Shown here piece after piece: positions 21,001 through 24,000 of a DNA stretch of 64,000 nt. Position numbers: made by a program. Origin of the DNA: an uncultured Bacilli bacterium. Its GTDB lineage: Bacteria; Bacillota_I; Bacilli_A; RF39; UBA660. How positions within the stretch are numbered: position 1 is the first letter of the stretch; each line of letters begins with the position of its first letter. The DNA lies in assembly GCA_934162425.1 (NCBI GenBank), contig CAKPIS010000003.1, positions 15,774 through 79,773 on the forward strand, in the 5' to 3' direction.

Positions 21001-24000
21001 GTTTTTTAATAGATATCAAACGAATATTTACGTTATATTTACAAAAAAGGACAATGAACATTTCATTATCCTATCCACCAAATTCTTTCAAAATCAGCAT
21101 ATCCACCAAGACCACCAGGTAAAGCTTCATATAAATTCTTTTCCAAAGGTTCTATAGGATCTATAACAAGAAAATCTGATGCTTTTGCATTATTTGCAGT
21201 AACTCCACTTTTGTAACCAACAACAGTTACCCAATGACTCCAATAATAATCCTCTTTACATGAGCCATGAACAACAACTGGTTTTCCTTCATTTATATTT
21301 TTTATAATCAATGCATATACATCTTTAGTTGATCCACCACTTCTGTAATTATTTGAGCCCCATTCACTTCTACTATAATCAGTAGAGTGCCTCATTATGT
21401 CACTTCTATCTATTCCTTGTGCTATCCATGCAGCATAAGTCATAGCAGCTTTATAACATTCACTTGGAGCTTGTTTACCAAACTTATTTTTAATTTGTTT
21501 AAAATCATATTTAACAGTCTTATACTCTCCGTTATTAGTACTTTTAGATGAATAATCATATCCTATAACAGCTGATGCAAGAGCAGATTTACCAGTATTT
21601 TTACTATCTTTAGAACAGGCACTCTTATCAGCATAAACACTTAATCTACCACTTCTAGGATTATTTTTATCATAAAAATCTAAACTCTCTAAATTATTTA
21701 ATGATGTAGACTTAGAACTAAATACTATGCAGCGATCATCAGAATTACTATATGCCCAAGTCTTAGCATCAAGTCCATTAAATGTATCCCATCTATAGTA
21801 AAGTTTTTTTTCATCATTTTTAGTTATAGTTGCTTTTACATAATAACTACCAGTACTAGATACTATAACAACATTATTTGAATTTTTAGTTTTTCCGCCT
21901 TTGTCTTCTAGTTTAATTGTAATACCATTACTACCGCTCTTTGTAGTAGTTGAAGGACTTCCAATTTGGTATCCTATAAAAGCTGATTTAACAGAGTTTT
22001 TACCATTCTTACAATCAGTTGCATTTTTATATAAACTAAACTTACCACTACGAGGTGTATTTTTATCATCATATTCTAATCTTTCTAGTGAGTTAAAAGT
22101 TATTTCTTTATCTTTAAATGACGAACAATAAGTATAATTACCATGACTTAATTTATCAGTATATGAATGCTTATTAGCATTAACTCCTGTATATGTATCC
22201 CATCTATAATACAAGTTAGCATTTTCACTTTGAGTTACTTTAGCTATGACACTATAATCTCCAGTACCATTAACATAAACAACATTATTATTAGACTTCA
22301 ATCCACTTTTATCCGTTAAACTAATTGTAACAATATTCTTTTTCTTTGGTGAATATTTATAATTTATAACAGATGATTTAATTGCTTTAGCACTACCGTC
22401 TGTATCAGACTCACAATCTTCTTTTGAATAATATACCTTTAACTTACCACTACGTTTTGAATATTCATTAGATTCATTTACAGTTATTGCCTCTAAATTT
22501 TTATTTACAGTTTTTAATCCAGAAGTTACTCTACATGTATCTTTCCAACTAAGACCTTTTGCATTTAAATTGTTATATATAAACCATTTATAGTATAGTT
22601 TGCTATCTACATTGGAATTATCATCAGCTTTAGCATTTATTTTAATTGTAATCTCTGGCTTATAATTACCAGATTTTGTAACTAAATATACTCCCTCTTT
22701 ATCCTTAGTAACATTATCGCTTGTATCTTTAATTTCTATTGTAACCAAACTTTTGGTTAAACCTGGTATTTGAGGTACAATTTTTTGTATAATTTGAGTT
22801 ATTTTCTTAAAAAAATCATTAAAATTCATACTTCCATTAACTTTTTCCATACTAAAAGCTGAATTTAACATAAATGATGTCATCATAAGCATTATAACTA
22901 AAACTAAAGATAATAATGCATATGCTATGCCTCTTTTCTTTTTTGTTTCATTACTTGGTCTTCCAATCTTATTTTCAAATAATTTCATGTTTACACCCTT
23001 TCCTTCACATATATAATGTGTACAACCTTTAATAATATAATAACATTACATAAATTATTAGGTCAATTAATTATCTTTTTTTTATGTAAAGTATGTGTTA
23101 ATCAAAAAGACCAAAATTTTTAAATTTTAAGTAATCTTTTTGCCAATTAAAATTAAAACAAATTTTATTTTAATATATGTTATAATAATTGGCAAAGGAA
23201 TTTTTACTATGACAAAAGACGAATTAAAAGCATTAAAAAAAGATATTAGAGAAATCCAAATACAAAATATTGAAGCTAAAATAATGATGTATAAAGAATA
23301 TATATTTTTATTTATTAATATTTTAATTGAAAAAGGATTATCTGATAATTATTTAGAAGAATTAATTAAGATTAAAGATGAATATATGGCCATATTAGAC
23401 GAAGAAAATAATTTATTAAATCTAATACTAAATAATGGTATAAATAAAAATATAAATGCTGTTGATGAATTAATTATCAAATTAAATGATTTAAATGAAA
23501 AAACTATTATTTATTATTATAGTTTGTTAGATGATATTGAAAGTGAAATAGAAATTAACAGAAATTATTCTTATAGACGCATTCCTAAAAATTTTGAAAC
23601 TTTAACTGAAACTGATGAATTTAAGTTTATGGTAAATGGACTTAATTTAACAATTAATGATGTAAAAAATTATTTAAATTATGGCAATGATTTTTGGAAT
23701 TATATTAAAGATAAAACTAAAGTTATTAAAAATCCTTACTCGAATTATGATCTAAAAATGAATTATTATGGCATTTGGTATGATTTTAATGAAGATAAAG
23801 AGATAACAAAATTAATCATATGTATACCAGAAATAATAGATCTTAAAACAGCACAGATAGCTATACATGAATTTATACTTGCCCATGATATTTACTCAGG
23901 CAACATAAAAGAAGATTATATATTAGAAGAATTTGCTAAGCAAGAAGAGACCAAATTCAAAAATGATTATTTAAAAAAAAGATATTAAAATAATTACATA

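Follow-up and report, generated by a model that had tools for sequence, protein, structure and literature searches.

We analyzed a stretch of 64,000 nucleotides (the window) from an uncultured Bacilli bacterium (GenBank assembly GCA_934162425.1, contig CAKPIS010000003.1, positions 15,774 to 79,773 of the forward strand), with a focus on P5, a single open reading frame (ORF) of 640 amino acids with an ATG start. P5 belongs to a known enzyme class, of which it is a new member, and carries two unannotated modules, an N-terminal leader and a tandem repeat, in front of its C-terminal domain (the head). Our preferred reading, to which we assign a probability of roughly 0.55, is that P5 works outside the cytoplasm as a cysteine hydrolase tethered to the membrane, most likely on the peptide portion of peptidoglycan. 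We favor this substrate because the head has relatives with fused cell-wall domains and because sister proteins carry a SleB-type head in its place. The coordinates of all features are collected in Table 1.

The head was modeled with AlphaFold 2 at high confidence (predicted local distance difference test [pLDDT] 90.8, predicted template modeling score [pTM] 0.89), giving a papain-like alpha+beta fold with a member of PF13529 (Peptidase_C39_2) as its closest structure. The original prediction had proposed a nucleophile-type Cys at the start of a helix and a His in a beta strand, and the model places both residues in this way: Cys511 (in PSECYKAAMTYAAW) opens a helix, His585 (in SHWVTVVGYKSG) lies in a strand, and Asp610 ends the next strand, with Gln506 upstream of the Cys, which is the papain arrangement and the one expected of PF13529 (Asp or Asn on the strand after the His). 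In an alignment of 44 head sequences, in which mean column identity is only 25%, G504, C511, Y518, H585, G591, and D610 show no variation, and more than 90% of the sequences keep Q506. From this model and this conservation we infer that the domain would be catalytically active. Among the structural neighbors of the head are true proteases (staphopains, SpeB, IdeS, and interpain) and also CdiA-CT (PDB 8ssk), the type VI effector BtaeB (PDB 9jdd), Alr0975, CtaG, and CcbD.

The assignment to a family was made largely through relatives. Scans of full-length P5 against Pfam and NCBIfam returned no match, and C39_2 appears only when the head is scanned alone (PF13529 against residues 480-640, E = 7.3e-4, 20.6 bits, profile positions 81-142, corresponding to the His/Asp half). 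The same model is matched by all 11 of 11 close family members. A phmmer search with the head against 1.84 billion cluster representatives found 113 relatives at E < 1e-3, and 39 of the 44 relatives that span the whole head match PF13529 at E <= 0.01 (best E 1e-8); P5 is therefore tied to PF13529 through intermediate sequences. Sequence searches of the PDB with the head and with a head profile (A1) gave chance-level matches, among them 3erv (E 0.73), a putative C39-like peptidase of Bacillus anthracis that we take to be the structural representative of PF13529, and a second head profile (A2) reached 9jdd at E 0.12. A scan of GTDB genomes with profile A1 recovered distant relatives only, at 39% identity or less over short stretches (30% for the top match, locus L002). 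These results support placing the head in a divergent branch of the C39_2-like lineage, within clan CA, with an intact Gln/Cys/His/Asp set.

The head had originally been described as a C39/papain-like peptidase of clan CA; the clan stands, and the narrower family has to be replaced by a C39_2-like one, as indicated by Pfam, the model, and conservation. The head lies outside C39 proper because there is no ABC (ATP-binding cassette) transporter, because its position and topology are wrong for that family, and because PF03412 does not match it even at E <= 10. The MEROPS C39 peptidases (ComA and PCAT1) are N-terminal cytoplasmic domains of such transporters, whereas the P5 head is C-terminal and predicted to be extracytoplasmic, and no double-glycine leader peptide that could serve as a substrate is found near P5. 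The head also differs from canonical PF13529 domains, in that its Gln-Cys spacing is short (G-x-Q-x4-C) where the canonical domains in the relatives P0015, P0016, and P0032 have a long one, and in that it sits at the C-terminus, behind a predicted membrane anchor and immunoglobulin (Ig)-like repeats.

An indication of function comes from the company that the head keeps. Its lineage is a divergent Peptidase_C39_2 branch of 113 cluster representatives that has been repeatedly fused to wall-lytic and wall-binding modules. P0015 (head 52% identical to that of P5) is fused to SpoIID and a canonical C39_2 domain, P0016 and P0032 are head relatives fused to C39_2, P0017 (38% identical) carries two PG_binding_1 domains, P0042 combines NlpC/P60 with Phage_lysozyme2, and P0060 combines NlpC/P60 with glucosaminidase. 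Wall-binding modules among head relatives comprise PG_binding_1 (n = 9), ChW (n = 5), SLH (n = 4), GBS_Bsp-like (n = 4), and SH3_3 (n = 1), and in P0017, P0019, and P0022 the head stands behind regions that match phage endolysin families. Viewed from the other end of the protein, the same leader and repeats carry one of three C39_2-like head types (a, b, and c, with approximately 21-25% mutual identity) or a SleB-type head, the latter in the sister proteins P0011-P0013 (Hydrolase_2, E 1e-17). At one locus from a related species (L001), leader-plus-repeat proteins lie in tandem at 6488-9850 and 10001-13069, with type b (P0007-like) and type a (P0004) heads, and SpoIVB-like and SpoIIM genes are found nearby, for which reason the lineage is probably spore-forming. 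One family member, P0008 (533 amino acids, type b head), has Ser in place of the nucleophile Cys of all other members (…QQTINASYDYALAYG…) and keeps the His and Asp; its head may use Ser as the nucleophile or may have been inactivated. A 3D/DPBB-like domain that had been suspected by eye in P0007, P0009, and P0010 found no support in Pfam and was dropped.

The N-terminus of P5 consists of a short leader followed by the only hydrophobic segment of the protein (Kyte-Doolittle 19-residue mean of 2.36 at residue 21; the best value after residue 60 is 0.94). From its sequence, residues 21-43 are predicted to form a signal-anchor or an uncleaved signal peptide, with the N-terminus inside and the remainder of the protein outside the cell; this location is supported by the lone strong transmembrane (TM) segment after a basic N-region and by the Cys pair that is invariant in 32 copies of the repeat. 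The leader has a longer consensus, M-x-x-F-[KE]-N-x-[VI]-G-R-P-[ST]-N-[EK]-x-x-K-K-R followed by the TM segment, in which G9, R10, P11, and R19 are invariant, and it opens five otherwise unrelated ORFs on the reverse strand of the window (starting at 22988, 20949, 12845, 11724, and approximately 761, the last of which runs off the window start) as well as many remote relatives of P5. A metagenome scan for the leader gave 50 loci (L018-L067) with 55 leader-bearing ORFs, in 42 of which domains were recognized; these include CHAP, SLT, glucosaminidase, Hydrolase_2, and C39_2, and also PG_binding_1/2, Transglut_core, ATLF, leucine-rich repeat (LRR), and Flg_new. No Pfam or NCBIfam model matches the leader, and a leader-profile search of a 5.8-billion-protein set returned short fragments only. 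We read the leader, which appears to be undescribed, as a lineage-specific motif in the N-region of a signal-anchor or signal peptide. A prepilin reading was ruled out, as a G↓F-x-x-x-E cleavage motif is missing and the neighboring protein P4, which shares the leader, lacks the Gly.

Between the membrane segment and the head, P5 contains three tandem repeats, as originally proposed, and their relationship is far beyond chance (pairwise BLASTP of the three units, E = 1.3e-12, 1.3e-21, and 1.8e-33; 27-41% identity). The tandem triplication thus stands, with a period of 128-137 amino acids in place of the 125 first given. The motif LYYKW/LYYRW/LYYRW, which had been taken as the beginning of each unit, is present at residues 131, 259, and 396, where it forms an internal beta strand (strand 48-56 of the model, which was built for repeat 3); the structural domain starts about 50 residues earlier. 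The second predicted motif, (R)SGKLKVY/SGKFSLY/SGRLSVY, occurs once per repeat, at residues 180, 314, and 446. The model (pLDDT 92) is a beta-sandwich of the Ig/FnIII type, and an alignment of 32 diverse repeat copies shows Tyr49 (the first Tyr of YYRW) and both Cys to be invariant, in agreement with the earlier suggestion of similarly spaced Cys in adhesin-like beta domains. On the basis of this confident model, the repeats are predicted to be adhesin-like beta-sandwich domains with an invariant Cys pair, and each pair probably forms a disulfide. The domain (about 121 amino acids) is present in one to four copies in 14 of 14 family members, and in 16 more distant proteins that were retrieved through their C-terminal domain. 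Pfam Big_1-9, fn3, and PKD gave no significant match (the best for whole P5 is Big_7, E 0.26), no Pfam family was matched by more than one of the 32 repeats scanned singly, no solved structure was matched by sequence, and a repeat-profile search returned nothing and is uninformative. P5 repeats resemble RbmA FnIII, Cpe0147-type adhesin, and Big_x repeats in their beta-sandwich fold, tandem order, and (predicted) extracellular location; they differ from the Big and fn3 families in having no sequence match to them and in a signature of their own (YYRW, RSG-x3-VY, and two invariant Cys). They define a new family of Ig-like repeats with a conserved Cys pair.

Taken together, the three parts suggest how P5 might work. 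The leader and the single hydrophobic helix would export and probably anchor the protein with its N-terminus inside the cell, the three Ig-like domains would form a stalk, bind the wall, or do both, and together with the anchor they would position the head inside the wall or on its far side. There Cys511, activated by His585 and Asp610 and with Gln506 providing the oxyanion hole, would attack an amide bond, the target being the cell's own wall (in growth, separation, or sporulation) or the wall of a neighbor. P5 would accordingly hydrolyze the cell wall and be assembled from modules in the way of autolysins and endolysins, rather than being a bacteriocin-processing C39 peptidase. Peptidase_C39_2 is listed among the enzymatically active domains of the endolysins of phages that infect Gram-positive bacteria (PMC8223927), and the 'N5' cysteine-protease domain of mycobacteriophage LysA was matched to 3erv by HHpred (PMC3314691). 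P5 shares the superfamily of its head with these phage endolysins, and relatives of the head show the binding-domain-plus-catalytic-domain build of lysins; P5 itself differs in being chromosomal, located among housekeeping genes, probably membrane-anchored, and without a recognized wall-binding domain.

Several results weigh against a peptidoglycan peptidase. The head scores below the PF13529 gathering threshold (20.6 bits against 24), and only its His/Asp half aligns to Pfam or, by hhalign, to three canonical C39_2 domains (probability 70%), so that the assignment of the Cys half rests on structure and conservation and not on profile alignment. To our knowledge, PF13529 has few characterized members. 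Pfam recognizes no wall-binding module in P5 (PG_binding, SH3, LysM, ChW, SLH, or CW_binding), a role that the Ig-like repeats could fill. A tblastn search with the head against phage and plasmid genomes gave no match, and no PHROG family was found. Modules typical of surface proteins with binding to a host or to polysaccharides (lectin, dockerin, LRR, and Flg_new) are found in other relatives of the head. Finally, P4 resembles PPEP-1, an enzyme that cleaves proteins and not peptidoglycan.

The last two points would fit a different role, in which P5 is a surface protease that cuts proteins (of the host, of the diet, or of its own surface) and is paired with P4 in surface remodeling or nutrient gain. 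P4 aligns weakly with the Clostridioides difficile Pro-Pro endopeptidase PPEP-1/Zmp1 (E 0.02-0.04), with HEFAHAVD...EFFADSYAFY in P4 opposite HETAHAID...EFFAESFAYY in PPEP-1 (HExxH and EFFAxS motifs), and its Pfam matches to ATLF (E 7.4e-5) and Flg_new (E 5e-5) are both below threshold; these sequence comparisons support a Zn metalloprotease of the ATLF/PPEP-1 type, and thus probably a chemistry other than that of P5. The two genes were first described as delivering two protease chemistries on the same N-terminal scaffold. The difference in chemistry holds up, and the shared scaffold shrinks to the leader and TM segment, about 45 amino acids (36% identity over 56 amino acids, E 8e-8), P4 having neither the repeat nor the head of P5. 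A protein substrate is favored further by the staphopains, SpeB, IdeS, and interpain among the structural neighbors, by the zinc motifs of P4 and the synteny of P5 and P4 on four other contigs, and by Big_2 in addition to lectin, dockerin, and Flg_new modules among head relatives, with LRR proteins among the leader bearers. The nearest relatives of the head, however, are fused to wall hydrolase or wall-binding domains, the sister proteins have a SleB-type wall hydrolase in its place, and there is one terminator-like hairpin for P5 and another for P4 (P4 has promoter-like and terminator-like sites of its own), so the two need not be co-expressed. We consider this role unlikely, although more probable than the other alternatives below.

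It is less probable still that P5 is an antibacterial effector resembling polymorphic toxins, with leader and stalk carrying interchangeable toxic heads (here of the Tox-PL-C39 type, a described toxin class; PMC3482391) against competitors. The constancy of leader and repeats under swapped heads (three C39_2-like variants and the SleB type) recalls the head-swapping on a conserved N-terminus of Tox-PL-C39 toxins such as BtaeB and CdiA-CT, which are also structural neighbors; paralogs with different heads are adjacent in the L001 tandem, and remote relatives of the head (P0045 and P0117 only) stand behind N-termini of the WXG100 type, as used in type VII secretion. Against this, no candidate immunity gene adjoins P5: a terminator-like hairpin follows its stop, and the next gene 3' is P4 (540 amino acids), 116 nucleotides away with no small ORF between. 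The N-terminus is predicted to be a membrane anchor, and Pfam and NCBIfam find no WXG/LXG, RHS, PAAR, or TPS trafficking domain in P5. The gene occupies a housekeeping setting (addAB and ppdK) with conserved synteny, and within the species P5 sequences are 98-100% identical, the head being the most conserved part (99-100%), which points to purifying selection.

We regard it as very improbable that the papain-fold head catalyzes transfer or ligation in place of hydrolysis and, as a transpeptidase, transglutaminase, or amide-bond former, cross-links or modifies polymers of the wall or the surface. A weak Pfam match to BtrH_N (E 0.18), one leader-bearing protein with Transglut_core, and the structural neighbors Alr0975, CtaG, and CcbD speak for it; the sequence affinity of the head is to C39_2 and not to BtrH_N, and the fusions are with lytic, not synthetic, enzymes. 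The idea that the C-terminal domain only binds and has lost its catalytic activity (inactive C39-like domains are known in some ABC transporters) has next to no chance, given that Gln, Cys, His, and Asp are all kept and are invariant or nearly so in more than 100 relatives.

A broader and more speculative proposal, which we put forward only tentatively and think doubtful as a whole, takes the leader and TM segment as an undescribed, lineage-specific sorting signal, the two-Cys YYRW beta-sandwich as a new wall-binding module, and P5 as a single cassette in a system whose members combine leader, stalk, and an exchangeable lytic head. The leader may then direct a whole group of surface proteins and wall hydrolases into an export or anchoring pathway of their own. 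In the window this group may comprise P5, P4, and the three further leader-bearing ORFs, and outside the window proteins whose heads are of the CHAP, SLT, glucosaminidase, SleB, LRR, and PPEP-like types. If the leader is a real sorting signal, then it would be a more interesting result than the head, and we see it as the most promising lead; if the head is a peptidoglycan peptidase, then it would add a cysteine-peptidase catalytic module to the lysin toolbox. In either case a protein family that had neither a name nor a Pfam assignment gains a usable annotation, and a conserved leader common to many exported enzymes of a very AT-rich lineage of gut Firmicutes is flagged.

Table 1. Features of P5 and its surroundings (window positions; residues are those of P5)
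Feature	Position	Strand	Remarks
P5 ORF	21066..22988	-	Single 640-amino-acid ORF, ATG start; end coordinate takes in the stop codon
Cytoplasmic leader (predicted), residues 1-20	22929..22988	-	MKLFENKIGRPSNETKKKRG; motif F-x-N-x-[VI]-G-R-P-[ST]-N, then basic run
TM segment (predicted), residues 21-43	22860..22928	-	IAYALLSLVLVIMLMMTSFMLNS; only hydrophobic segment of P5
Linker from TM segment to repeat 1, residues 44-82	22743..22859	-	Variable between strains
Repeat 1, residues 83-211	22356..22742	-	Ig-like beta-sandwich (predicted), Cys152/Cys192; repeat hidden Markov model (HMM) E 2.8e-31
Repeat 2, residues 221-341	21966..22328	-	Ig-like beta-sandwich (predicted), Cys288/Cys326; repeat HMM E 6.5e-33
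Repeat 3, residues 357-478	21555..21920	-	Ig-like beta-sandwich (model), Cys420/Cys458; repeat HMM
Head, residues 489-640	21069..21524	-	Papain-fold, Peptidase_C39_2-like cysteine hydrolase domain (predicted)
Gln506 codon	21471..21473	-	Candidate oxyanion-hole residue, G-x-Q-x4-C motif; Gln in 65/70 relatives covering the column
Cys511 codon	21456..21458	-	Predicted nucleophile; first residue of helix 511-524 (domain H32-45)
His585 codon	21234..21236	-	Predicted general base; strand 584-593 (domain E105-114); His in 113/116 aligned relatives
Asp610 codon	21159..21161	-	Predicted third triad member, VIDP motif; end of following strand (domain E127-131); Asp in 105/116
P4	19327..20949	-	Leader, Flg_new/Big_2-like middle, ATLF/PPEP-1-like Zn metalloprotease (predicted; HEFAHAVD ... 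EFFADSYAFY)
Promoter-like site	23037..23066	-	TTGACC-18-TATTAT, TG upstream; consensus match only
Terminator-like hairpin and T-run	21048..21072	-	Overlaps the P5 stop codon; hairpin scan

P5 lies in very AT-rich sequence (approximately 24% GC for the host sequence and 22-28% GC around P5) among housekeeping genes, with addA/addB downstream, ppdK upstream, and tsf, rpsB, priA, folD, and glyA farther off. The order P5-P4-addB was found again on four other contigs from other samples, some of the related loci are labeled human gut metagenome, and the exact P5 protein occurs in NCBI, ENA, and Logan assemblies, each time without a name. A ribosome-binding site (GGAAAGGG) is located 8 nucleotides 5' of the ATG. 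Judged from these signals, P5 looks monocistronic, that is, a transcription unit of its own, because a promoter-like site precedes it and its stop codon is overlapped by a terminator-like hairpin; the AT-rich region shows no enrichment of promoter-like sites, and terminator-like sites number three as against 0.5 expected in shuffles. An Rfam scan of the whole window found four tRNAs and nothing else. The divergent ORF at 23140-23988 (forward strand; 282 amino acids, or 259-261 as called elsewhere) adjoins P5 on the four other contigs too, contains 'IHEFILAHD', and has no match in Pfam or NCBIfam; it is not an obvious immunity gene, because it is on the strand opposite to P5.

Variation between strains or species is concentrated near the membrane. 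The linker of P0003 is 33% identical to that of P5 (the flanking parts are 95% identical), and repeat 1 is the most variable of the repeats, at 67-68% identity in P0002 and P0003. Repeats 2-3 and the head of P0003 are 84-95% identical to those of P5, which leaves residues 44-211 as the variable part.

Two of the other leader-bearing ORFs in the window, at 10840-11724 and 11904-12845 (both on the reverse strand; 294 and 313 amino acids), are tandem paralogs with an ectodomain of about 250 amino acids, no significant Pfam match, and a common 'LSCECG' motif. A Cys-rich and Thr/Lys-rich protein of 645 amino acids at 6451-8388 (reverse strand) has an N-terminus (…ERRGFTIKDLLIRLILIIIFIF…) that resembles the class III signal of prepilins and pseudopilins (G↓FT-x-x-[DE]), and L001, a related locus, has a PF07963 N_methyl gene directly upstream of the leader-bearing genes.

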